Made by a program: the position numbers and the translations under genes
Shown: in pieces, positions 6,039 through 24,727 of the stretch
Position numbering within the stretch: position 1 is the first letter of the stretch
How the letters are laid out: each line of letters begins with the position of its first letter
Notes under the pieces: model-generated
Databases searched by the model: none
Told to the model about the DNA's origin: nothing
The model's input: only the letters and a program-made list of their open reading frames with translations
Source of the DNA: a bacterium
Lineage (GTDB): Bacteria > Patescibacteriota > Minisyncoccia > Phycocordibacterales > UBA1006
NCBI GenBank assembly: GCA_043771175.1
Contig: JAYVHO010000008.1
Span: 5,124 to 69,123, forward strand
DNA length: 64,000 nt
Direction: 5' to 3'

Positions 6039-6545
6039 TTACACCTTCTTATATAACTCAACAGAAACCCCTAAAGATTCTTCAAACGGAAGAATGGAAT
6101 GTTCATATTTTGAAACCTCTTTATGATTACTGAAATGATGAACTGTTTCTGTAATAGCAGAAAACCGAGCAATCGCAATAGTTCCGTTTGGTTTTAAAAT
6201 TCTATGAACTTCAGAAAGTAAACTCTGTTCATTGATAAATTTATGAAACGAGTTAGAAAACACCACCAAATCAGCTGATTCTGATAAAATGTTGGTACCA
6301 AAAATCCGTGGGTTTGATAAGTAGGTAATTGATATATTATGATTATCTTTGTATTCTTTAGTAAACTTTTCAAATTGTTCAAAATTATGAGTAACACCAA
6401 TATAATGTTCACCTGTTTGCAGTGCTTCAAAAATAAGAGGTGGATGACCGTATGACGTAAATACACCAAATTCCACCACTGTGGGTGCCACGGTTAATTG
6501 TGAAGTGACGTATCTTTTGATTTGAAGAGGGAGATTAAACCACAT
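6039..6545 (-). CDS. Class I SAM-dependent methyltransferase
   Basis: 'ADLVVFSNSFHKFINEQSLLSEVHRILKPNGTIAI' (Methyltransf_11-like). Start at 'MWFNLP' is supported by tgttacaat (rc of 6556-6564). Confidence 0.65.
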   Translation of the reverse strand: MWFNLPLQIKRYVTSQLTVAPTVVEFGVFTSYGHPPLIFEALQTGEHYIGVTHNFEQFEKFTKEYKDNHNISITYLSNPRIFGTNILSESADLVVFSNSFHKFINEQSLLSEVHRILKPNGTIAIARFSAITETVHHFSNHKEVSKYEHSILPFEESLGVSVELYKKV

Positions 6546-13072: not shown

Positions 13073-13450
13073 ATGAACAGTATTGTATTTTTTGCAAAAT
13101 TGTTGCTTGGTGTATCAGTTGCACATGCACAATCAACGTTGCCTCCACAATTCACGATGCCAAAACTCGGAAATATGTTGTGTCCGGATAGTACTAAAGT
13201 ATGTGCGTTTGACTCATTGCCTGATTTTATAAATATGATTTTAAAATTTATTGTTGATGCAGGGACACCTATTGTAGCTATTGCCTTTATTTGGACAGGG
13301 CTTAAGTATGTTTTGGCTCAAGGTAATCCTGGAAAATTAACAGAAGCTCATAGAACTGCAAAATATACATTGATTGGCGCGGCTCTTATCTTGGGATCAT
13401 TTGTTATCACTAAAGTAATCACTGCCACGGTAGGTGATATCATTAATTAA
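13073..13450 (+). CDS. Pilin-like small membrane protein 1 (VirB2/TrbC-type: signal peptide plus 2 TM helices)
   Basis: '...GVSVAHA|QS', TM 'IVAIAFIWTGLKYV', loop 'AQGNPGKLTEAHR', TM 'LIGAALILGSFVI'. Confidence 0.6.
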   Translation: MNSIVFFAKLLLGVSVAHAQSTLPPQFTMPKLGNMLCPDSTKVCAFDSLPDFINMILKFIVDAGTPIVAIAFIWTGLKYVLAQGNPGKLTEAHRTAKYTLIGAALILGSFVITKVITATVGDIIN

Positions 13451-15741: not shown

Positions 15742-16593
15742 ATGATTAAGAAAAAAACAACAAAAGATATTCACCATACTAAAAAAGTTTCCATTGGTAT
15801 TGTGATATTGACGGTATTTTTTGTGGTTGCAATTATTGCAAGTAAAAGTAGTAAGCATCATGAAATACTTTCTGTAATAAATGATGATGTTTCTGAAGAA
15901 TGTAACGTTGCTCAGATAAATATTAGAGGAGTTATTCTTCCATATTTACCACCAGTAGAATATGACGAAGATGGAAATGAAATACCTATGTATGATGCTG
16001 TGAGTAGTGAAAATATTATTGCCAGTTTAGAAAAAATTAAAAAAGATGACACCATTTCTGCTATTCTTTTGAATATAGATTCTCCGGGAGGTGTGCCAGT
16101 TCCTGCAGAAGAAATAGATCAAGCAGTGCAACACGCTGGATTACCTGTTGTTTCTTTGATACGGTCAGTTGGGACATCAGCGGCATACTGGGCGGTGAGC
16201 AGCAGTAACCACATAATTGCTTCAAAAAATTCTGACATTGGAAGTATTGGCGTGACATCATCTTATTTAGAAAATAAACATCCTGATCAAAAATTTATAG
16301 AAATTTCCAGTGGTAAATACAAAGATTATGGTAATCCAGATAAACCATTAACCGATGACGAAAAGAATATTATTTTACGTGACGTAAAAATTATTCATGA
16401 AAATTTCATGGATGCTGTTTCAAAAAATAGAAATATTGCCAGAGATATTGTGATGCAATTTTCTGACGGAACCACGGTTCTTGGTCAAAAGGCTCTTGAA
16501 ATAGGTTTAATTGATCAAATTGGTGGATTTTATGAAGCAAAAGACTATTTGCGCGAATTAATTGATGAAGATCCTGTTATTTGTGAGTATTAA
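15742..16593 (+). CDS. sppA: Signal peptide peptidase SppA (S49), 36K type
   Basis: 'IDSPGGVPV', 'GTSAAYWAVS', 'GSIGV'. tgatatact at 15727-15735. Confidence 0.8.
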   Translation: MIKKKTTKDIHHTKKVSIGIVILTVFFVVAIIASKSSKHHEILSVINDDVSEECNVAQINIRGVILPYLPPVEYDEDGNEIPMYDAVSSENIIASLEKIKKDDTISAILLNIDSPGGVPVPAEEIDQAVQHAGLPVVSLIRSVGTSAAYWAVSSSNHIIASKNSDIGSIGVTSSYLENKHPDQKFIEISSGKYKDYGNPDKPLTDDEKNIILRDVKIIHENFMDAVSKNRNIARDIVMQFSDGTTVLGQKALEIGLIDQIGGFYEAKDYLRELIDEDPVICEY

Positions 16594-16630: not shown

Positions 16631-18106
16631 ATGATACCCACTATGGCAAAAGACTCAACTATTATACGTTTTGAAAACGTTTCGTTTGATTACGGTCCTC
16701 ACAAGCAAACCCTTGACGATGTGTCATTTGGTGTGCGAACACGTTCAAAAATTGCTCTCATGGGGCAAAATGGGGCAGGAAAGAGTACTTTGTTTGGACT
16801 TATTACTAAAACTCTTTTACCTATTGAGGGACGAGTGCTTACCGAGCATGGTGCAACCATTGCCATTGCGCGTCAGGTAATTCCGCGAGATTGGATGGAT
16901 TTAACCGTACGAGAGTTTTTTGAAAAATCTTTCAATGAAAAGATTTACGATATTGACCCACGCATTAAAGGCGTGCTTGAAGTAGTGTCATTTGAAACAC
17001 CATACGACAGACAAATCAAAACATTTTCTGGTGGTCAACAAGCACGGTTGTTGCTTGCTTCTGCCTTAATTGCTGAACCAGATATTTTGCTTCTTGATGA
17101 ACCAACCAACAATTTAGATCATATTGGAATTGAGCATCTTACAAATTTTTTGAAAGAATATAAAAAAACAGTACTGGTAATTTCTCACGATGCGGAATTT
17201 TTAAATCAATTTACTCATGGGGTGTTATATCTTGATGTATACACCAAAAAGATTGAACAATACACCGGAAACTATACTGATGTATTAAAAGATATTACTG
17301 CCAGAGTTGAAAAAGAAAATATGAAGAACGCTCAGTTGAAAAAAGAAATTATTTCCAACAAAGAGAAAGCAAATCAGTTTGCCTTTAAAGGAGGTCAAAT
17401 GCGTATGGTGGCAAAACGCATGAGAGAAAAAGCAGAAGAATTAGAAGATGAAATGGTAGATGTCCGTAAAGAGGATAAAACTATTCGACCTTTTTTTATT
17501 CCTACCCAAGAAAATTTGAGCGGAGATTTAATTACTATTAATAGTTTAACAGTATTTAAAAATCATATTCCTACTCAAAAAAAAGTAAACCTCGCGATGA
17601 AAAAAAGTACCCACCTTCATTTAATTGGGCCAAATGGAATAGGAAAATCAACATTATTAGAAAGAATTACCAAAAATGAAGAAGATGGTATTAAGGTTTC
17701 ATCAGATATTCGTATTGGATATTACCGCCAAGATTTCTCAAACATTGATTTTGATAAATCTTCATATCAAGTCCTATCAGAAGCAATGCTTACCACTGAT
17801 AAAGAAATCAATGAAGAAAAGATTCGTGCCACAGCGGCTCAATTTTTAATCGTAGGGGATATGATTCATAACAAGATCGGATCACTTTCAGAAGGGCAAA
17901 AAGGATTAATCGCATTTGCCAGATTAGTAATAGAAAAACCAGGACTTTTGGTATTAGATGAACCAACCAACCATATTAACTTCCGTCACATTCCCGTAAT
18001 TGCAGAAGCGCTGAGTAAATTCCAAGGAGCCATGATTGTTGTTTCTCACGTTCCAGAATTTATTGCAAAAATAAGAATAGATGAAACACTTGATTTAGGA
18101 AAATAA
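16631..18106 (+). CDS. ABC-F family ATPase (two ABC domains, no TM domain)
   Basis: 'GQNGAGKSTL'/'SGGQQARL'/'LLLDEPTNNLD' and 'GPNGIGKSTL'/'SEGQKGLI'/'LVLDEPTNHIN'. The start could instead be 16643. Confidence 0.85.
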   Translation: MIPTMAKDSTIIRFENVSFDYGPHKQTLDDVSFGVRTRSKIALMGQNGAGKSTLFGLITKTLLPIEGRVLTEHGATIAIARQVIPRDWMDLTVREFFEKSFNEKIYDIDPRIKGVLEVVSFETPYDRQIKTFSGGQQARLLLASALIAEPDILLLDEPTNNLDHIGIEHLTNFLKEYKKTVLVISHDAEFLNQFTHGVLYLDVYTKKIEQYTGNYTDVLKDITARVEKENMKNAQLKKEIISNKEKANQFAFKGGQMRMVAKRMREKAEELEDEMVDVRKEDKTIRPFFIPTQENLSGDLITINSLTVFKNHIPTQKKVNLAMKKSTHLHLIGPNGIGKSTLLERITKNEEDGIKVSSDIRIGYYRQDFSNIDFDKSSYQVLSEAMLTTDKEINEEKIRATAAQFLIVGDMIHNKIGSLSEGQKGLIAFARLVIEKPGLLVLDEPTNHINFRHIPVIAEALSKFQGAMIVVSHVPEFIAKIRIDETLDLGK

Positions 18107-18136
18107 AAAAACCGCTGCACAATGCAGCGGTTTTTT
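18107..18136 (+). terminator. Rho-independent terminator
   Basis: accgctgca-caa-tgcagcggt followed by a T6 run. Confidence 0.8.
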
Positions 18137-18156
18137 ATAATCGGTGAGATAAATAG

Positions 18157-19137
18157 TTACTGTGCTTTCCATAGTACTTTAGGAATTTTACTTAAGCTGA
18201 GCTTGTTATAATTTCTCATGCAATCTGGATCATAGAATATTCTCTCGTCTTTGATAAAATCAAGTATACTTTTTGAAAATGAAGAACAGATGCTTATCAT
18301 CGATAGACGTTGATAAATATGTTCAGTTTCAGATACGTCATGCTCTACTTCGGTAAAACTGACCAAGATTTCTTGAGGTGCAGCAGAAGTAGCTTGAATA
18401 ATTTGCTGAAGGGTATAATCCGTCATGCAGCAAGGACAAGCATTTGAAAAATATAAAAGAGGATTATGGTTATGAATAATATTTGCACAAACTGCTTCTT
18501 TTCCTTGTATTGACATAAAAACATTATTTTTTTGAGTATTTACAACGGCTTCAAGTACTTGAGAAGAAATCATTCCTTTTTTATATGAAGCATCTTTAAG
18601 ATAGTTATAGATATTTTTGACAGGAAAGAAATATTCTGAAAAAAAATCCAGCGGAGTTTCCTCGTTAATATATGTTTCTGTTAAGATTCCTACTCGATAA
18701 TAATAGGGAAAATCATGATTTGGTTTGAATACTGCTAATTCATGAGAAAGTAATCCAAACGCATATGCAGACTTTACTCCAATAATTTTATTATCTTCAT
18801 GCGAAATAAGATTAAAAACATCAGAAATTTGAAGTAAGTATGCATCTAAAAGATCCTTGCCACTTCTTATTATGGTAGGAGAAAAATTTGCAATATGTAC
18901 AACATTTTCAAAATACAAAGGAGGTAAAGCAACTTCAAAGCTTTTTAAATATTTTATCTTATTAAGAAGCTGCTTTTTTTCTTTAGGTAATAGGTGTTTA
19001 AATATACCAAGGATACTTTCAATACTTTCTGATGATTTATCATCAAACGTAAGACCGGCGGTCAGTAGTTCATAGAGTGAGTCAGTGAATCCGAAAGATT
19101 CAACATCAAGGGAGGAGTTATAAATAATTTTTGCCAT
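18157..19137 (-). CDS. Hypothetical protein (orphan, about 327 aa)
   Basis: Long ORF with no motif I recognise. ATG at 'MAKIIYN' is preferred over the TTG at 19206, because TTGACA-17-TATCTT (19206-19178, minus strand) lies upstream of it. Confidence 0.5.
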   Translation of the reverse strand: MAKIIYNSSLDVESFGFTDSLYELLTAGLTFDDKSSESIESILGIFKHLLPKEKKQLLNKIKYLKSFEVALPPLYFENVVHIANFSPTIIRSGKDLLDAYLLQISDVFNLISHEDNKIIGVKSAYAFGLLSHELAVFKPNHDFPYYYRVGILTETYINEETPLDFFSEYFFPVKNIYNYLKDASYKKGMISSQVLEAVVNTQKNNVFMSIQGKEAVCANIIHNHNPLLYFSNACPCCMTDYTLQQIIQATSAAPQEILVSFTEVEHDVSETEHIYQRLSMISICSSFSKSILDFIKDERIFYDPDCMRNYNKLSLSKIPKVLWKAQ

Positions 19138-19493
19138 ATCTTGAGTTAGATTAAGTTTTTTAAATAAATTCTTCTTTAAGATACATTTTTTATCTATCAA
19201 TGTCAAACATATTGTGCGACATTAACTTACAAAAGATAAAAGTAGGCTTTATGAAAAATATACAAAAGATAGGTGTGACATTGTGTGCGCTAGTGTGTAT
19301 AAGGTGAATATTAACTGCATAATAATGATCAGCAAACTATGTTTAAAGTCTGAAGTTATAGTATTCTAAAAACCACAATAAACTATGGTTTATAATCTTT
19401 CTTTGTCGCAAAAGATATATTGTACGACATTGATATATCTTTAAAACAATTATGTTATCCACAGTTGAATATTTTTTATAACAATTACCTATT

Positions 19494-19527
19494 TAAAAAA
19501 ATAACCCAGAAAATTTCTGAGTTATTT
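19494..19527 (-). terminator. Rho-independent terminator of the 19579-19986 gene
   Basis: Minus-strand sense: ataactcaga...tctgggttat followed by a T7 run. Confidence 0.65.
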
Positions 19528-19578
19528 ATTGTTAACTAAGTAAAAATATCAAATTACGTGTAATTGATACACCACATA

Positions 19579-19986
19579 TTACCCAAATCGTAAGTATGTA
19601 AAGTATATACTGCACAATTCAAGCATGACAAAGAATCCGGCAATTACCCCACTGCTTACTTCATGAACACTAGTCTTTCCACTAACAGATAATAATTCAT
19701 AGATTTTTTTCTTTTTTGATCGATAGCCAGCTAGAGACACTTTTTCAATCAGCCACACCACCATACTTATTACAAGCCCTATGCAAACACCCGTATACAA
19801 CATGACAATAATGTCAGGATAGTGTTGGGTATGAGGATCACCTGCCATCATTTTTGTAAATGAATTCCAAAAAAAATTATATAATTTCTTTGAAAAGATT
19901 TCAGAAATAAATGGAGCAAGAACCCCAAATACTAAAATATAAATAGCAGCGGGTACTTGAGAAAATACTTTGATAATATTCTTCAT
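19579..19986 (-). CDS. Hypothetical membrane protein (orphan)
   Basis: 135 aa with 3-4 hydrophobic helices; ATG start; terminator downstream. Confidence 0.5.
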   Translation of the reverse strand: MKNIIKVFSQVPAAIYILVFGVLAPFISEIFSKKLYNFFWNSFTKMMAGDPHTQHYPDIIVMLYTGVCIGLVISMVVWLIEKVSLAGYRSKKKKIYELLSVSGKTSVHEVSSGVIAGFFVMLELCSIYFTYLRFG

Positions 19987-20189
19987 TTTTATAATTTAAA
20001 TAAGATGATGTTAATTATAGTACATTATATAAAATATATGTCAATAAATAATATTATTATGATGTATGTCAAAAAAAGTAATCCACAGCTTGAATACTCT
20101 CCCCTTGCAATTATTGTGGAATTTGTAATAATGCACTCAATCAGTTTAATGATAAATAGCTGATATTTATAATCTAATTAAGTATAAGC

Positions 20190-20465
20190 ATGACAACACT
20201 TGACCTTGAACAATTAATGGTAATTTCATTCTCATCATCAAGAATTTCACTTGGAGAAGATGACGATGAGGTTGATGAAGAAGAAAGCCCTTCTTTATAT
20301 GACGAAGACGCTCCAAAGAAAAAAATAAACCCATTTGAACTTGTTGATGAAGACAACAAAGATGGTGGCACAGCAGAGGGAGACGACGACGTTGACCCTT
20401 TGGTTGGTGATGAAGATGAAGAAGACATTGAAGAAATGGATGGATTCTCTGAAGTTGAGGAATAA
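20190..20465 (+). CDS. Hyper-acidic D/E-rich small protein
   Basis: 'GEDDDEVDEEE...GDDDVDPLVGDEDEEDIEEMDGFSEVEE'; ATG start; terminator at 20487-20511. Confidence 0.55.
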   Translation: MTTLDLEQLMVISFSSSRISLGEDDDEVDEEESPSLYDEDAPKKKINPFELVDEDNKDGGTAEGDDDVDPLVGDEDEEDIEEMDGFSEVEE

Positions 20466-20486
20466 TTACAAATTCAAAACTTATAT

Positions 20487-20511
20487 AAAAATACGCTTAC
20501 GCGTATTTTTA
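20487..20511 (+). terminator. Rho-independent terminator
   Basis: aaaaatacgc-ttac-gcgtattttt. Confidence 0.75.
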
Positions 20512-20533
20512 TATTGTGTAAAATTCTCTACAT

Positions 20534-20561
20534 AAAAATCACATACTAATATGTGATTTTT
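20534..20561. terminator. Palindromic terminator serving the K/A-rich gene on the minus strand
   Basis: aaaaatcacata-ctaa-tatgtgattttt. Confidence 0.7.
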
Positions 20562-20570
20562 ATGAAAAGA

Positions 20571-20729
20571 TTATTTTTTTGAAACCTTTTTAGTTGCTTT
20601 TTTAACTGCTTTCTTTACTGCTTTTTTAGGAGCGACTTTTTTAACAGCCTTTTTAACAACTTTCTTTACTGCTTTTTTAATTGCTTTTTTAGGAGCAACT
20701 TTTTTAACAGCCTTTTTTGCGATAGCCAT
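20571..20729 (-). CDS. 52-aa lysine/alanine-rich, histone-H1-like basic protein (not in the ORF track)
   Basis: Hand translation: MAIAKKAVKKVAPKKAIKKAVKKVVKKAVKKVAPKKAVKKAVKKATKKVSKK*. ATG start, TAA stop, internal ~63-nt DNA duplication. Confidence 0.65.
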   Translation of the reverse strand: MAIAKKAVKKVAPKKAIKKAVKKVVKKAVKKVAPKKAVKKAVKKATKKVSKK

Positions 20730-21024
20730 ACGTGTACTTAGTGTTGAAAAACGAATAATAAATAAAATGAGATAAATATTATTGTTAGTGATTGGTTAGG
20801 GTCGACCGCATGAATAACATAAATGGTCGATACAAGCATTTACATTTCATGTATAGATATTGTATGAATAAATTGAGGTTCATACAATAGATAAGGCTGT
20901 GTATAACCATACTTCATTCTATCTTTTGCAATCGTTTTGCAAAAGATAGAATTATATTTATGATAGTAAGAAAAATTACTCCACCACTACATTCTTTTTA
21001 ATTATTAGTAAAAATTCAAAATCT

Positions 21025-21125
21025 CACCAAAACACTTCTCTCTAAACTCCATCCGGACGCAAGCGTTCCTATTCATACTTCTTTTATAAGTCCCGCAAGC
21101 ATGTTTAAGGAGAAGTGTTTTGGTG
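21025..21125. other. 101-nt long hairpin (candidate ncRNA or MITE-like element)
   Basis: The 23-nt arm caccaaaacacttctctctaaac pairs with gtttaaggagaagtgttttggtg (one mismatch, one G.U). The interior carries two cGCAAGc motifs. Confidence 0.4.
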
Positions 21126-21159
21126 GATTTTTACTTGTGTTGCAGAAAATCACTAAATA

Positions 21160-21199: not shown

Positions 21200-21475
21200 A
21201 TGGCACATAGGAAAGCAGGAGGAACAGCAAGGAGTTTTAGAGATTCAAACCCTCAATACCTTGGAACCAAAAAATACGGAGGAGAAAAAGTACAATCTGG
21301 AAATATCATTATTCGTCAACGCGGTACAAAAATCATGCCAGGAACGAATGTGGATATTGGTTCAGATCATACTATCTACGCTACTACAGAAGGATTTGTT
21401 GTTTACGGAACCAAACGAGTAACACACTTTGATGGAACGGTAAAAGTTAAAAAAACTGTATCAGTTCAAAAATAA
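21200..21475 (+). CDS. rpmA: 50S ribosomal protein L27
   Basis: '[44 protein letters not shown]'. Confidence 0.9.
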
Positions 21476-21483
21476 ACTTCATA

Positions 21484-21508
21484 AAAAATACCCTTACGGG
21501 TATTTTTT
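21484..21508. terminator. Bidirectional terminator between rpmA and rplI
   Basis: aaaaaataccc-ttac-gggtatttttt. Confidence 0.8.
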
Positions 21509-21512
21509 ATGT

Positions 21513-21953
21513 CTACTGAATAGTTATTATAACTTTTGCAATTAAACCATCTGCACAAGTGATTGAAATCTTATAATCCCCTATTTTGTGAATGGAATCT
21601 TCTAATTCAATGTCAATTTCTTTAACAAGAATTTTGAATGTTTTTAAAATTTCTTCACTGATTATTTTTTTAGTTACCGATTTATATAATGTTCCTTGAG
21701 GAGTTTTATCAGATTTAATAATTACGGTGTGATTATTCAAAATATCGTAACGTTTTCTTTTGGTCGTGACTTCTTCTTGCTTTAACTGTGCAACTTTTTT
21801 ATCATGATGAATTTTTTCATGCAATACTTGCTCTGTGGCTGGTTCAGCCAGTTGTTTTGGAAACAGCATGTTGCGTGCTTGTCCCTCACTTACCTCTTTG
21901 ATGTCGCCTTTTTGACCCATTCCTTTAATATTCTGTAGAAGACGTACTTTCAT
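21513..21953 (-). CDS. rplI: 50S ribosomal protein L9
   Basis: 'MKVRLLQNIKGMGQKGDIKEVSEGQARNMLFPKQLA'. Confidence 0.9.
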   Translation of the reverse strand: MKVRLLQNIKGMGQKGDIKEVSEGQARNMLFPKQLAEPATEQVLHEKIHHDKKVAQLKQEEVTTKRKRYDILNNHTVIIKSDKTPQGTLYKSVTKKIISEEILKTFKILVKEIDIELEDSIHKIGDYKISITCADGLIAKVIITIQ

Positions 21954-21989
21954 ATGTATCCATCATACATTTTAAAACGCATGCAGTCA

Positions 21990-22020
21990 AAAGGGCCCGA
22001 CGCTATGCGTCGGGCCCTTT
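21990..22020 (-). terminator. Terminator of the helicase gene
   Basis: aaagggcccgacgc-tat-gcgtcgggcccttt (14-bp GC-rich stem). Confidence 0.75.
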
Positions 22021-22041
22021 TATAATATTGTTAGAGAAATA

Positions 22042-23232
22042 TTAAACAAACGTAATTGCGAATCCTTTTTTATCTGCTCGTCCTGTTCTACCAATTCGGT
22101 GAACATAGGTGTCATATGTCTGTGGGATTTCATAATTAACTACGTGAGTAACTTCTGGGATATCAAGTCCACGTGCCGCAACATCTGTTGCAACGAGGAT
22201 ATTAATATCATTGTTTTTAAACGCTGTTAGAGTACGTTGACGTTCAACGTGTCGTTTGTCTCCGTGGATAGATCCAGCCTTGTAGCCTCGTTTTTCAAGC
22301 TCTACAGCCAAATCATGAACAACATACTTCATACCAGCAAAGATGATAGTTTTTTTACACTCATCTTTTGCAAGAATAAGTTCAAGTCCATCCATTTTGG
22401 TTGGAAAATCTTCCGTATAAATCACGTCTTGGTCAATATTTTTAGAAGTGTCACGTGTTTTAACGGTAATAATTTTTGGAGCTTTCATGAAGTTGTTTAC
22501 TAGGTTTTCAATTTTCTTAGGAAACGTAGCTGAGAAGAAAAGACTTTGTCTTTCTTCTGGCATTTCTGCAAGCATTGCGGTGATGTCATCAACAAATCCC
22601 ATATCAAGCATTTTATCTGCTTCATCGAGAACTACATTTTTAACTTGAGAAAGGTCAATTTCCCCTCGTGCACATAAATCCATTAAACGTCCTGGAGTTC
22701 CAATAATAACGTGAACTCCTTTTCGTAGATTTTGAACTTGGTTGTACATTGAGGTTCCTCCAACACAAATTGCACTGAAAAGATTGATACCTCGTGTAAA
22801 TTGGTCTAATTCTTTGTGAATTTGAATGGCAAGTTCACGTGTTGGTGTCATCACTAACAAAGTTTGTGAATCATCAGCAAGAATTTTATGAACCATAGGA
22901 ATCAAAAACGCAGCTGTTTTACCAGTACCGGTGTTTGCAATACCTACAACGTCCATTCCTTCCATGATAAATGGAATTGATTTGTCTTGAATAGGACTTG
23001 GGTTAACGTAATTTTTTTGTGCAATAGTTGCAGCCAATAATGGATTTAATCCAAAATCAGAAAATGTGTGAGTTGGAACGTATGCTACTTCGTTTTCAAC
23101 AGGCTCTGCCTTGTTAATGAATTTTGAAATATCAATTCCTCCACGCATCATTCTTTTCTTTTGTGCCCATCCTTTTGGTTTTGCTTGTTGAGGATTATTT
23201 GAGCGTCCTCGTTGTCTATCTCTAAATGACAT
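22042..23232 (-). CDS. DEAD-box ATP-dependent RNA helicase
   Basis: 'ANTGTGKTAAF', 'VLDEADKM', 'SAT', 'HRIGRTGRA'. Start at 'MSFRDRQRG'. Confidence 0.9.
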   Translation of the reverse strand: MSFRDRQRGRSNNPQQAKPKGWAQKKRMMRGGIDISKFINKAEPVENEVAYVPTHTFSDFGLNPLLAATIAQKNYVNPSPIQDKSIPFIMEGMDVVGIANTGTGKTAAFLIPMVHKILADDSQTLLVMTPTRELAIQIHKELDQFTRGINLFSAICVGGTSMYNQVQNLRKGVHVIIGTPGRLMDLCARGEIDLSQVKNVVLDEADKMLDMGFVDDITAMLAEMPEERQSLFFSATFPKKIENLVNNFMKAPKIITVKTRDTSKNIDQDVIYTEDFPTKMDGLELILAKDECKKTIIFAGMKYVVHDLAVELEKRGYKAGSIHGDKRHVERQRTLTAFKNNDINILVATDVAARGLDIPEVTHVVNYEIPQTYDTYVHRIGRTGRADKKGFAITFV

Positions 23233-23503
23233 AAATATGTTTATAGAGGTGTTGATAATTTCCCAATAATTTATAGAGTATAAAATTACCACACCTGTGT
23301 TACAGCTAATATAATTGACCAATGTAGAAAAAGTAACATGTATCCTTTAAAAAATACCGAACTTGTTGTAAAACCGGCCTAGTATTGAAACACAGGCAAA
23401 ATAGCTAATATCCCAATGCTGGTAATAATATCATTAAAGAGTAAAAATGTCAAATAACCTCATGTATAAACAAAAAAACACGGTATATCTCTTATGATAA
23501 TTT

Positions 23504-24727
23504 CTATTTCTTTGTATTAATAATCTCAATTGCTTTTTGAAGCTGAGTATCAACTTTTTTATCTTTAATTTCTTGTTCGGTTCTTGTTACGATAAAGTCT
23601 GGAATAATACCCTTTTTTGAAATTTGGTGGTCGTCAGGTGTTAACCACTGTGCAATGGTGATTTTTATGGCTGAGCCTTCTCCTACTTCCATAAGCTCTT
23701 GAACAGATCCTTTACCAAAAGTAGTAGTTCCTACTAAAGTAGCACGGTCGTTTTCACGAAGTGCTCCTGCGAGGATTTCTGAAGCAGAAGCTGATCCTCC
23801 GTCTACCAATAGTACTACGGGTACATTTTTACCAATAGTTTCATAACCCATAGACAAATGAGAAATATTTTTCTTTTTTCCACCAAAATCTTCTTTTACG
23901 ATCACGGCATTTTTAGGAAGAAAATGGCTTGAAATATCAATTGCGGAAGTCAAAAGTCCACCCGGGTTTCCTCGCAGATCTATAATGAGACCCTTTGGTT
24001 TAGTGGCAAGTGCATTGTTAAGTGCTTTTTTAAATAATGCTGCAGAATCAGTAGAAAAACTGGCAAGTTGGATTTCATAAATACCATTATCAAGTTGCTT
24101 TTCAGTAATAATAGGAACTTTGATAATTTCTCGTTCTATGGTGACATCAAAAAGATCTTTTCCTTCTCGTAAAATGGTTAAGGTAACAGCAGTACCTTCT
24201 TTTCCTCGTATCTTTGAAAGTGCTTGTGAAATAGTAATAGTTGAAGAATCCTCACCATCAATTTTAACCATAATATCTTTTGGTAAAATACCTGCACGTT
24301 CTGCAGGAGACCCTTTGAGTGGTGAAATGACGGTCAAAACGCCACTAATAGATTCTATTTCTGCTCCAATGCCTCCAAACTCACCTTGGATTTCTTGTGC
24401 AAATAATTCTGCTTCTTTTGGTGAAAAGTACATGGTAAACGGGTCACCATATGATGCAGTTAATCCTTTTATGGCATCGTATACTTTATCTTGGTTTTGA
24501 GGTTGTTTAAATGGATATTTTTCTTGGAGAAGATTCCACACTTGCCAAAATTCTCCAAAATCAGCTGAAACTGACGGTGGTACTGTAATATTTGACACTT
24601 CTTGTACTTTTTTAATCCCTTTAATGTCGTGAGTAGAACCCACTTTTACTCCAATAAAAAACATAATAGCAAGCAGTGACACTGCCGACGATCCAATAAA
24701 AACTGACGAAGGTACTTTGTATTTCAT
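23504..24727 (-). CDS. S41 carboxy-terminal processing protease with PDZ domain
   Basis: 'GGIGAEI', PDZ 'GSPAERAGILPKD', 'DLRGNPGGLL', 'DGGSASASEI'. Confidence 0.85.
   Translation of the reverse strand: MKYKVPSSVFIGSSAVSLLAIMFFIGVKVGSTHDIKGIKKVQEVSNITVPPSVSADFGEFWQVWNLLQEKYPFKQPQNQDKVYDAIKGLTASYGDPFTMYFSPKEAELFAQEIQGEFGGIGAEIESISGVLTVISPLKGSPAERAGILPKDIMVKIDGEDSSTITISQALSKIRGKEGTAVTLTILREGKDLFDVTIEREIIKVPIITEKQLDNGIYEIQLASFSTDSAALFKKALNNALATKPKGLIIDLRGNPGGLLTSAIDISSHFLPKNAVIVKEDFGGKKKNISHLSMGYETIGKNVPVVLLVDGGSASASEILAGALRENDRATLVGTTTFGKGSVQELMEVGEGSAIKITIAQWLTPDDHQISKKGIIPDFIVTRTEQEIKDKKVDTQLQKAIEIINTKK

Follow-up and report, generated by a model that had tools for sequence, protein, structure and literature searches.

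A convergent gene pair of opposite charge

The window, as we call the whole 64-kb stretch of contig JAYVHO010000008.1 analysed here, belongs to an uncultured, Paceibacteria-like bacterium of the Patescibacteria, has a G+C content of ~30-38% and carries ordinary bacterial housekeeping genes. Within it, two small genes with ATG starts face each other. One, on the plus strand (20190-20465), encodes a hyper-acidic protein of 91 amino acids (aa), and the other, on the minus strand (20571-20729), encodes a polycation of 52 aa made of (A/V)KK repeats. The former was defined by its open reading frame (ORF), codon log-odds and a homologue in a related genome, the latter by its ORF, codon log-odds and two orthologues. 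Coordinates and translations of both match exactly those in a preliminary description of this DNA, which had suggested that the two products could be a DNA-compaction factor and its chaperone, antagonist or DNA mimic. Two related genomes serve for comparison throughout: L003 (ENA ERZ27336856 NODE_561), the closest relative with both flanks visible, whose ribosomal protein L27 is 87% identical to that of the window, and L136 (Logan SRR29492108), whose L27 falls into the same 90% cluster as the window L27. The nearest matches of the window L27 itself carry the labels Candidatus Paceibacterota, Pacebacteria or Nomurabacteria.

The acidic protein contains 18 D and 18 E against 4 K and 1 R (40% D+E, net charge -31), while the basic protein, with 24 K, 11 A, 10 V, 2 P and neither D nor E, has a net charge of +24 and consists to 46% of K, 21% of A and 19% of V. 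An internal tandem duplication of 63 nt (21 codons) within the basic gene, proposed earlier as ~63 nt, was recovered by Tandem Repeats Finder at 20597-20717 on the minus strand with a period of 63, 1.9 copies and 89% matches. The basic gene had also been regarded as unannotated, which does not hold: its 52-aa product is already among the gene calls of a public contig, as both genes are called on the 197-kb metagenomic contig ENA ERZ28573538 BUSI22-1 scaffold_21.

Both ORFs are, by codon usage and divergence, genuine protein-coding genes. Scored with codon log-odds derived from 33 long window ORFs, the acidic frame reached 0.80 bits/codon and the basic frame 0.50 bits/codon (runner-up 0.29), each the top of its six frames, with the genes for L27 (0.49 bits/codon) and L9 (0.37 bits/codon) as reference. 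Relative to L003, the differences at codon positions 1/2/3 are 6/6/20 over 45 codons for the basic gene and 28/25/47 over 82 codons for the acidic gene, and 15 of 36 conserved residues in the basic protein and 11 of 34 in the acidic protein are encoded by different codons in the two genomes. This third-position excess, together with the synonymous codon changes, indicates selection on both proteins in the given frames. The S-rich ORF antisense to the acidic gene (20174-20428), which the preliminary description had kept as a candidate for the real gene, does exist but was rejected as a shadow ORF: its frame reaches 0.26 bits/codon where the acidic frame reaches 0.80, and in L003 it extends over only 44 aa. 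A Shine-Dalgarno motif was absent from 25/25 window genes inspected, so that its absence is no argument against translation of either ORF. In many window genes the ATG is instead preceded, at a distance of only 8-12 nt, by a TGnTATACT or TATAAT-like box (e.g. at 15742, 24727 and 8409, and further at 13073, 55763, 40353 and 47502), which suggests that leaderless or short-leader mRNAs are widespread in this organism.

The acidic protein is evolving fast. A BLASTP comparison with its 100-aa homologue in L003 (5638-5940) aligned only the N-terminal 52 residues (E 2e-4, 38% identity), and the full-length alignment has an identity of 41%, compared with the 87% of L27 between the same two genomes. 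The acidic composition is retained in the L003 homologue alongside three short motifs, and the parts kept between both proteins comprise the N-terminal MTTLxxEQL, EDDD, DEEE, the central KKKxxxFxxV and the C-terminal DGFxE. Conserved hydrophobic or aromatic motifs within acid runs are typical of docking and would hint at a specific folded client beyond the repeat peptide. In AlphaFold2 models, which are single-sequence predictions for both proteins, the acidic protein showed no secondary structure (pLDDT 61, pTM 0.13) and is predicted to be disordered; the basic protein was modelled as three helices broken at P13 and P34 (pLDDT 81).

The two genes are, judging from the signals around them, separately transcribed convergent units. 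Two hairpin terminators lie between them, as described before with coordinates that correspond to their inner parts. Folding against shuffles placed a perfect 14-bp stem with a 4-nt loop 3' of the acidic gene at 20483-20514 (-15.5 kcal/mol, z -6.0) and a hairpin with 26-nt arms and a 15-bp core (20531-20564) 3' of the basic gene at 20520-20575 (-20.6 kcal/mol, z -6.4 on the minus strand). Equivalent hairpins of different sequence follow the acidic gene (16 bp, z -7.7) and the basic gene (z -5.6) in L003, and the 3' flank TTATGAAAAGATTATTTTTTTGA at the basic-gene hairpin is identical in both genomes. A-tracts and T-tracts form part of the arms of the stems, and each hairpin may therefore stop transcription in both directions. 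Upstream of the acidic gene, a consensus scan found a promoter-like site on the plus strand at 20105-20132 (TTGCAA, a spacer of 16 nt and a TG-extended AATAAT). The identical site occurs in L003 (5549-5576) within a conserved stretch of the form CTTGCAA...TTTGTAATAATG..TCAATCAGTTTA..GCTGAT, and it presumably acts as the promoter of the acidic gene. With promoter-like sites and hairpins of their own, the genes form insulated convergent units and not an operon.

The region 5' of the basic gene (20730-20952, minus strand) is non-coding and conserved, as seen in a three-genome alignment with L003 (6202-6425) and L136 (147-350), in which the mean column identity is 80%. Its block 20799-20908 is 76% identical to L003, whereas other spacers are ~50% identical. 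An invariant ACACTAAGTA.ACGT adjoins the ATG, GTTATACACAGCCTT is likewise invariant, and a near-invariant hairpin block of ~55 nt has the form CATGAA..ATAAATG..loop TATCGACC..CATTTAT..TTCATG. The element GCGGTCGAC, 3' of this hairpin, might form a pseudoknot by pairing with its loop. A palindrome, TTTGCAAA-N4-5-TTTGCAAA, is located at 20916-20952, and the consensus fold of the region has 35 pairs, of which 3 show compensatory changes. A conserved ORF was absent across the three genomes and Rfam was unmatched, with sub-threshold noise only for the intergenic regions as a whole. The region may be a structured leader, an operator or a promoter, and the transcript of the basic gene may either be leaderless from ACACTAAGTA or carry a leader of ~165 nt from GTTATACA. 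Further upstream, just ahead of rpmA (encoding L27), lies another long hairpin (21007-21135) with a perfect stem of ~18 bp (CACCAAAACACTTCTCTC / GAGAAGTGTTTTGGTG; -45 kcal/mol over a 200-nt region, z -4.6), which is not conserved in L003 and gave only sub-threshold matches of 18-25 bits to microRNA-precursor families in Rfam.

Relatives and the variable stretch

In L003, the 100-aa acidic ORF and a Lys/Ala ORF of 45 aa (6064-6201, 80% identity to the basic protein) have the same convergent layout, order and spacing as in the window, and the charges are -36 and +22 compared with -31 and +24. L136 contains the basic gene as well (6-146, 46 aa), but there the contig breaks off immediately after the stop codon, and the acidic side lies outside it. 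From the lengths of 45, 46 and 52 aa in the three genomes it follows that the repeat number of the basic gene varies. Six more distant relatives (L27 67-71% identical) lack the pair beside L27, and no hyper-charged ORF was present in the 59 kb inspected; at the position of the pair they encode a different gene of 123-151 aa. Co-occurrence in related genomes, which the preliminary description had taken as informative, is seen in L003 but not beside L27 in six more distant Paceibacteria. The protein of 123-151 aa at the more distant loci is divergent from rpmA and ends with a conserved Y-Y-x-x-D-C-S...A-G-Y...C.

The block from the S49 peptidase through L27, L9 and the S41 peptidase to DUF4015 is syntenic between the window and L003, so that adjacency of the pair in L003 is expected from shared ancestry. 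Gene content nevertheless differs on both sides of the pair. An ABC-F ATPase, a 326-aa orphan and a DEAD-box helicase are found in the window only, L003 carrying different small ORFs, and the 135-aa membrane protein of the window is unrelated to the 127-aa membrane protein at the same place in L003. For the 326-aa neighbour (18157-19137), the GTDB genomes contained no relative. Such a variable, orphan-rich stretch raises the chance that two lineage-specific genes become adjacent. The variable island itself, between the S49 peptidase and L27, spans 16631-20000 in the window and 4200-5500 in L003. On its other side (window 21200-24727), rpmA stands alone, without rplU (L21) upstream, and faces rplI (L9) in convergent orientation; after rplI come the S41 peptidase and usually DUF4015 (loci L003, L006, L007, L132, L133, L135 and L136). 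The inspected Paceibacteria loci have this arrangement in common.

Beyond these relatives the acidic protein is, as far as the searched collections reach, a lineage-restricted orphan, its family being limited to two genomes (the window and L003). It had no significant match in Pfam (E<=1), NCBIfam, PHROGs, PADLOC or PDB sequences, and Pfam (E<=1) gave no homology to prothymosin or parathymosin. The query alone was returned by a word-indexed search of 5.8 billion proteins, by a full phmmer search of 1.84 billion representatives and by a two-sequence profile at E<=10, but the protein collection holds neither the L003 acidic protein nor any of the Lys/Ala peptides, and these negatives undercount homologues. 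Scanning the acidic alignment against JGI metagenomes gave zero matches. A hand-made DNA pattern for MTTLxxEQL plus an acidic run had 4 matches, all in unrelated ORFs of 16-37 aa, which we discarded as chance.

Lys/Ala repeats in other bacteria and comparison with known systems

The basic peptide had been likened to histone H1, Hc1 and AlgP. Its composition does resemble the C-terminal tail of H1, but the corresponding profiles were unmatched and the KPAA repeat is absent. Neither Hc1 (PF07432), HC2 (PF07382) nor Linker_histone matched the 52-aa peptide in Pfam at E<=1, Hc1 and HC2 were also unmatched by the L003 orthologue at E<=0.1, and no significant match was obtained in NCBIfam, PHROGs or PADLOC. 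The best hits among PDB sequences were H2B tails, which were non-significant (E 0.09-1). Two APKK motifs are present in the peptide, which has neither an N-terminal domain nor a winged-helix globular domain. With at least 40% Lys, short A/V/P-K-K repeats and no acidic residues, it instead corresponds to the generic Lys/Ala-repeat polycations, a compositional class and not a homology family. Judged by composition it is a new member of this widespread, little-studied class, and it most likely binds nucleic acid by charge.

How far this class extends was seen in a motif scan of the GTDB species representatives with an exact degenerate DNA pattern for KKA[VATIM]KK[AV][AV]KK, for which we calculated a chance expectation of ~0.3 matches. 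At least 120 loci/species were found, and the matches listed include Bacteroidota, Planctomycetota, Verrucomicrobiota, Acidobacteriota, Proteobacteria, Myxococcota, Actinobacteriota and several Patescibacteria. Among the matches listed, 110 loci allowed the motif to be placed in an ORF; 19 of these 110 ORFs are <=70 aa long and the rest are tails of larger proteins. Stand-alone examples are those of a Chitinophagaceae (L022, 33 aa), a Planctomycetota (L024, 35 aa), a Saccharibacteria (L019, 61 aa) and a Paceibacterota genome (L059). They are similar to the window peptide in size class, in the KKA(V/A)KK motif, in the Met-Ala start and in being single small genes with their own signals, but differ, among the matches listed, by the absence of an acidic neighbour. 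A common origin of these peptides is indistinguishable from convergence because the sequence is of low complexity. At six loci (L041, L057, L023, L056, L081 and L096) the Lys/Ala repeat forms the tail of proteins whose N-termini look, by eye, like L17, L24, RsfS-like proteins and topoisomerase I, which we presume them to be. This distribution fits a Lys/Ala repeat that would serve as a portable nucleic-acid-affinity module.

Acidic neighbours were not a general feature of such loci. No credible separate acidic ORF was found within 1 kb at the ~110 Lys/Ala loci among the matches listed, and three lenient matches were rejected as alternate-frame artefacts in G+C-rich DNA. Around the stand-alone peptides of the Paceibacterota and the Saccharibacteria genome there were ordinary neighbours only. 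Acidic and basic parts are combined differently in four Bryobacterales proteins (L042 1781-2566, L114 221-745, L115 3216-3983 and L118 5436-5888), di-block polyampholytes that fuse an acidic N-terminus with a conserved E-x-D-D-F-x-Y-D-E motif, a Pro-rich linker and a long (A/P)KK-repeat tail in one chain. We know of no described family to which these di-block proteins belong. Their tail matched HC2 with 15-20 bits only, below the 40-bit cut-off. An acidic run with an aromatic motif (E-x-D-D-F) and a Lys/Ala repeat are shared with the window pair, but the two parts are fused in the Bryobacterales, which belong to another phylum, and the acidic part is non-homologous; homology with the acidic protein of the window was rejected at an hhalign probability of 0.3%.

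Several known systems resemble one or both of the window proteins. AlgP/PhaF-type proteins carry tandem KPAA/KPVA repeats on a helical N-terminal domain, and the KPAA repeats of Pseudomonas AlgP bind DNA and position polyphosphate granules (PMC9239181). The KPAA region of PhaF, likewise from Pseudomonas, binds RNA, including mRNAs (PMC12818456). Together with chlamydial Hc1/Hc2 and the PAKKA tails of mycobacterial HupB and Ku, these proteins share with the window peptide an extreme content of Lys plus Ala/Val in short tandem repeats, a change of copy number through internal duplication, a disordered or locally helical state and an affinity for DNA, RNA or polyphosphate that would be expected from charge. 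The window peptide differs from them in its length of only 52 aa, the absence of a folded domain, the presence of just two prolines and a repeat unit of (A/V)(A/V)KK in place of KPAA or a pentamer.

For the acidic side, eukaryotic prothymosin-alpha forms a disordered high-affinity complex with linker histone H1 (PMC7661507). The acidic protein of the window, with its 40% D+E, net charge of -31 and predicted disorder, is prothymosin-like in this respect, and the window pair likewise would combine a disordered polyanion that has an internal KKK patch with a disordered polycation, the two charges being opposite and of similar size. There is, however, no sequence relationship, the charges in the window are about half as large, and the genes are bacterial and merely adjacent. 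Acidic proteins that bind bacterial HU have been described in Neisseria (DMP12 and DMP19) and in a phage (Gp46; PMC3643605, PMC5722371, PMC8892312). As with these, a small acidic protein might rival DNA as the ligand of a basic DNA-binding protein; in contrast to the window protein, which is predicted to be foldless and has the repeat peptide as its candidate target, they are folded, present a DNA-like charge surface and target HU. DNA mimics in general (DMP12, DMP19, Ocr and ArdA) have a folded scaffold on which carboxylates are arranged like the charges of DNA.

Possible meanings of the pairing

For the adjacency of the two genes, common descent within a variable hot spot is the best explanation, and we see about an even chance that they are two independent small genes that share this hot spot of lineage-specific genes. 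As independent genes, the basic one would encode a free-standing copy of the Lys/Ala module that is found elsewhere alone (30-60 aa) or as a tail. Its product would coat polyanions electrostatically and independently of sequence, with chromosomal DNA as the most likely target and RNA, ribosomes or possibly polyphosphate as alternatives, of which RNA and ribosomes would be the serious one given the gene neighbourhood and the precedent of PhaF. Short helices, kinked at the two prolines, would form on binding, and the repeat number of the gene would drift by slippage or duplication. The acidic product would be a fast-evolving, lineage-restricted, disordered polyanion acting as a charge decoy for basic proteins, with its three motifs (MTTLxxEQL, KKKxxxFxxV and DGFxE) conferring specificity and hinting at a docking partner. 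Produced in the same cell, the two proteins would attract each other, while a selected function of this attraction is only possible.

Several observations weigh against independence. The only hyper-acidic and the only hyper-basic low-complexity ORF of the 64-kb window are immediate neighbours. By our own arithmetic, random adjacency of two given genes among ~65 would occur in ~3% of cases, a figure that is inflated in favour of the pair because the stretch is a variable, orphan-rich island. Order, orientation and spacing of the pair are kept in L003 despite gain and loss of genes on its flanks, the opposite charges are of similar size in both genomes, and the fusions of acidic and Lys/Ala parts in the Bryobacterales indicate that acid-base coupling has been selected somewhere.

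The same observations speak for a dedicated polyelectrolyte pair, in which the acidic protein would be a chaperone, antagonist or buffer of the polycation and would control its loading onto DNA or RNA through a disordered, charge-driven complex. Both products are predicted to be disordered or only locally helical, as such a complex would have it, and there are precedents for disordered complexes (PMC7661507) and for acidic HU binders (PMC3643605, PMC8892312). We nevertheless consider a dedicated pair possible but rather unlikely. Co-transcription is absent, the genes being convergent with two strong, probably bidirectional hairpins between them; none of the ~110 Lys/Ala loci among the matches listed has a separate acidic neighbour; the acidic family is confined to two genomes; conserved adjacency is what synteny would produce at the divergence between the window and L003; and the acidic module of the Bryobacterales is not homologous. 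An adjacency beyond shared synteny, as would mark a dedicated two-gene system, is not apparent from the sequences compared. The convergent pair is kept in L003, but the pairing does not generalise to Lys/Ala loci elsewhere. As a hypothesis it is neither refuted nor, outside one narrow lineage, supported, and the reservation already made in the preliminary description, that the pairing may be coincidental, stands.

A more specific form of such a partnership can be offered as a doubtful proposal: the pair could be a bacterial counterpart of prothymosin-alpha and H1, in which the free Lys/Ala polycation would compact or coat the nucleic acid of an ultra-small Patescibacteria cell and the co-inherited, disordered polyanion would chaperone or titrate it, perhaps in a coacervate, with the polycation gene additionally controlled via its conserved and possibly structured 5' region.

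Alternatively, the basic peptide could be an RNA- or ribosome-associated factor and not a nucleoid protein, the acidic protein being unrelated to it. This concerns the target of the peptide and is compatible with two independent genes, so its weight is not to be summed with that of the other explanations. The basic gene is located next to rpmA and rplI in all three genomes, Lys/Ala tails elsewhere sit on proteins that look by eye like L17, L24, an RsfS-like protein and topoisomerase I, the similar region of PhaF binds mRNAs, and the conserved 5' region, which may be structured, is similar to the leaders of autoregulated ribosomal-protein genes. The peptide has, on the other hand, no homology to any ribosomal protein family, and its gene and rpmA point away from each other with 470 nt between them, so that proximity does not mean co-transcription. 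On balance we regard a role on RNA or ribosomes as improbable, if worth keeping in mind.

Opposite charges and adjacency are also what a toxin-antitoxin-like module would show, with a toxic cationic peptide neutralised by the polyanion, and histone-like proteins such as chlamydial Hc1 are harmful when overexpressed. The genes, however, are not bicistronic: each has a promoter-like site of its own, and they converge on two intervening hairpins; PADLOC, Pfam and NCBIfam were unmatched; the hydrophobic residues of the peptide are Ala and Val only, and it has no signal peptide; and a mobile-element context is absent. Such a module is very improbable. Least of all do we expect that one or both ORFs are non-coding low-complexity by-products and that the S-rich antisense ORF is the gene instead, since this idea, to which their shortness, repetitiveness and lack of database homologues might lead, is already largely refuted by the frame-specific codon usage, the third-position excess of substitutions (6/6/20 and 28/25/47), the start, stop and motifs kept although the DNA has diverged, the terminator structures conserved in L003 and the shortening of the antisense ORF to 44 aa there.

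Should the two proteins not be partners, they would be an ordinary case of lineage-specific genes of low complexity that collect in a variable region, and a useful caution against inferring function from charge complementarity. If the partnership is true, it would be the first bacterial disordered polyelectrolyte chaperone pair and, being very small, a tractable model of complexes driven by charge. Free-standing Lys/Ala peptides, for their part, are encoded in many bacterial phyla, and our literature search turned up no work on them; the cases that have been studied (such as AlgP, PhaF, HupB and Hc2) are tails on larger proteins. In a genome-reduced Patescibacteria cell, such a Lys/Ala peptide could be a major counter-ion of DNA or RNA.

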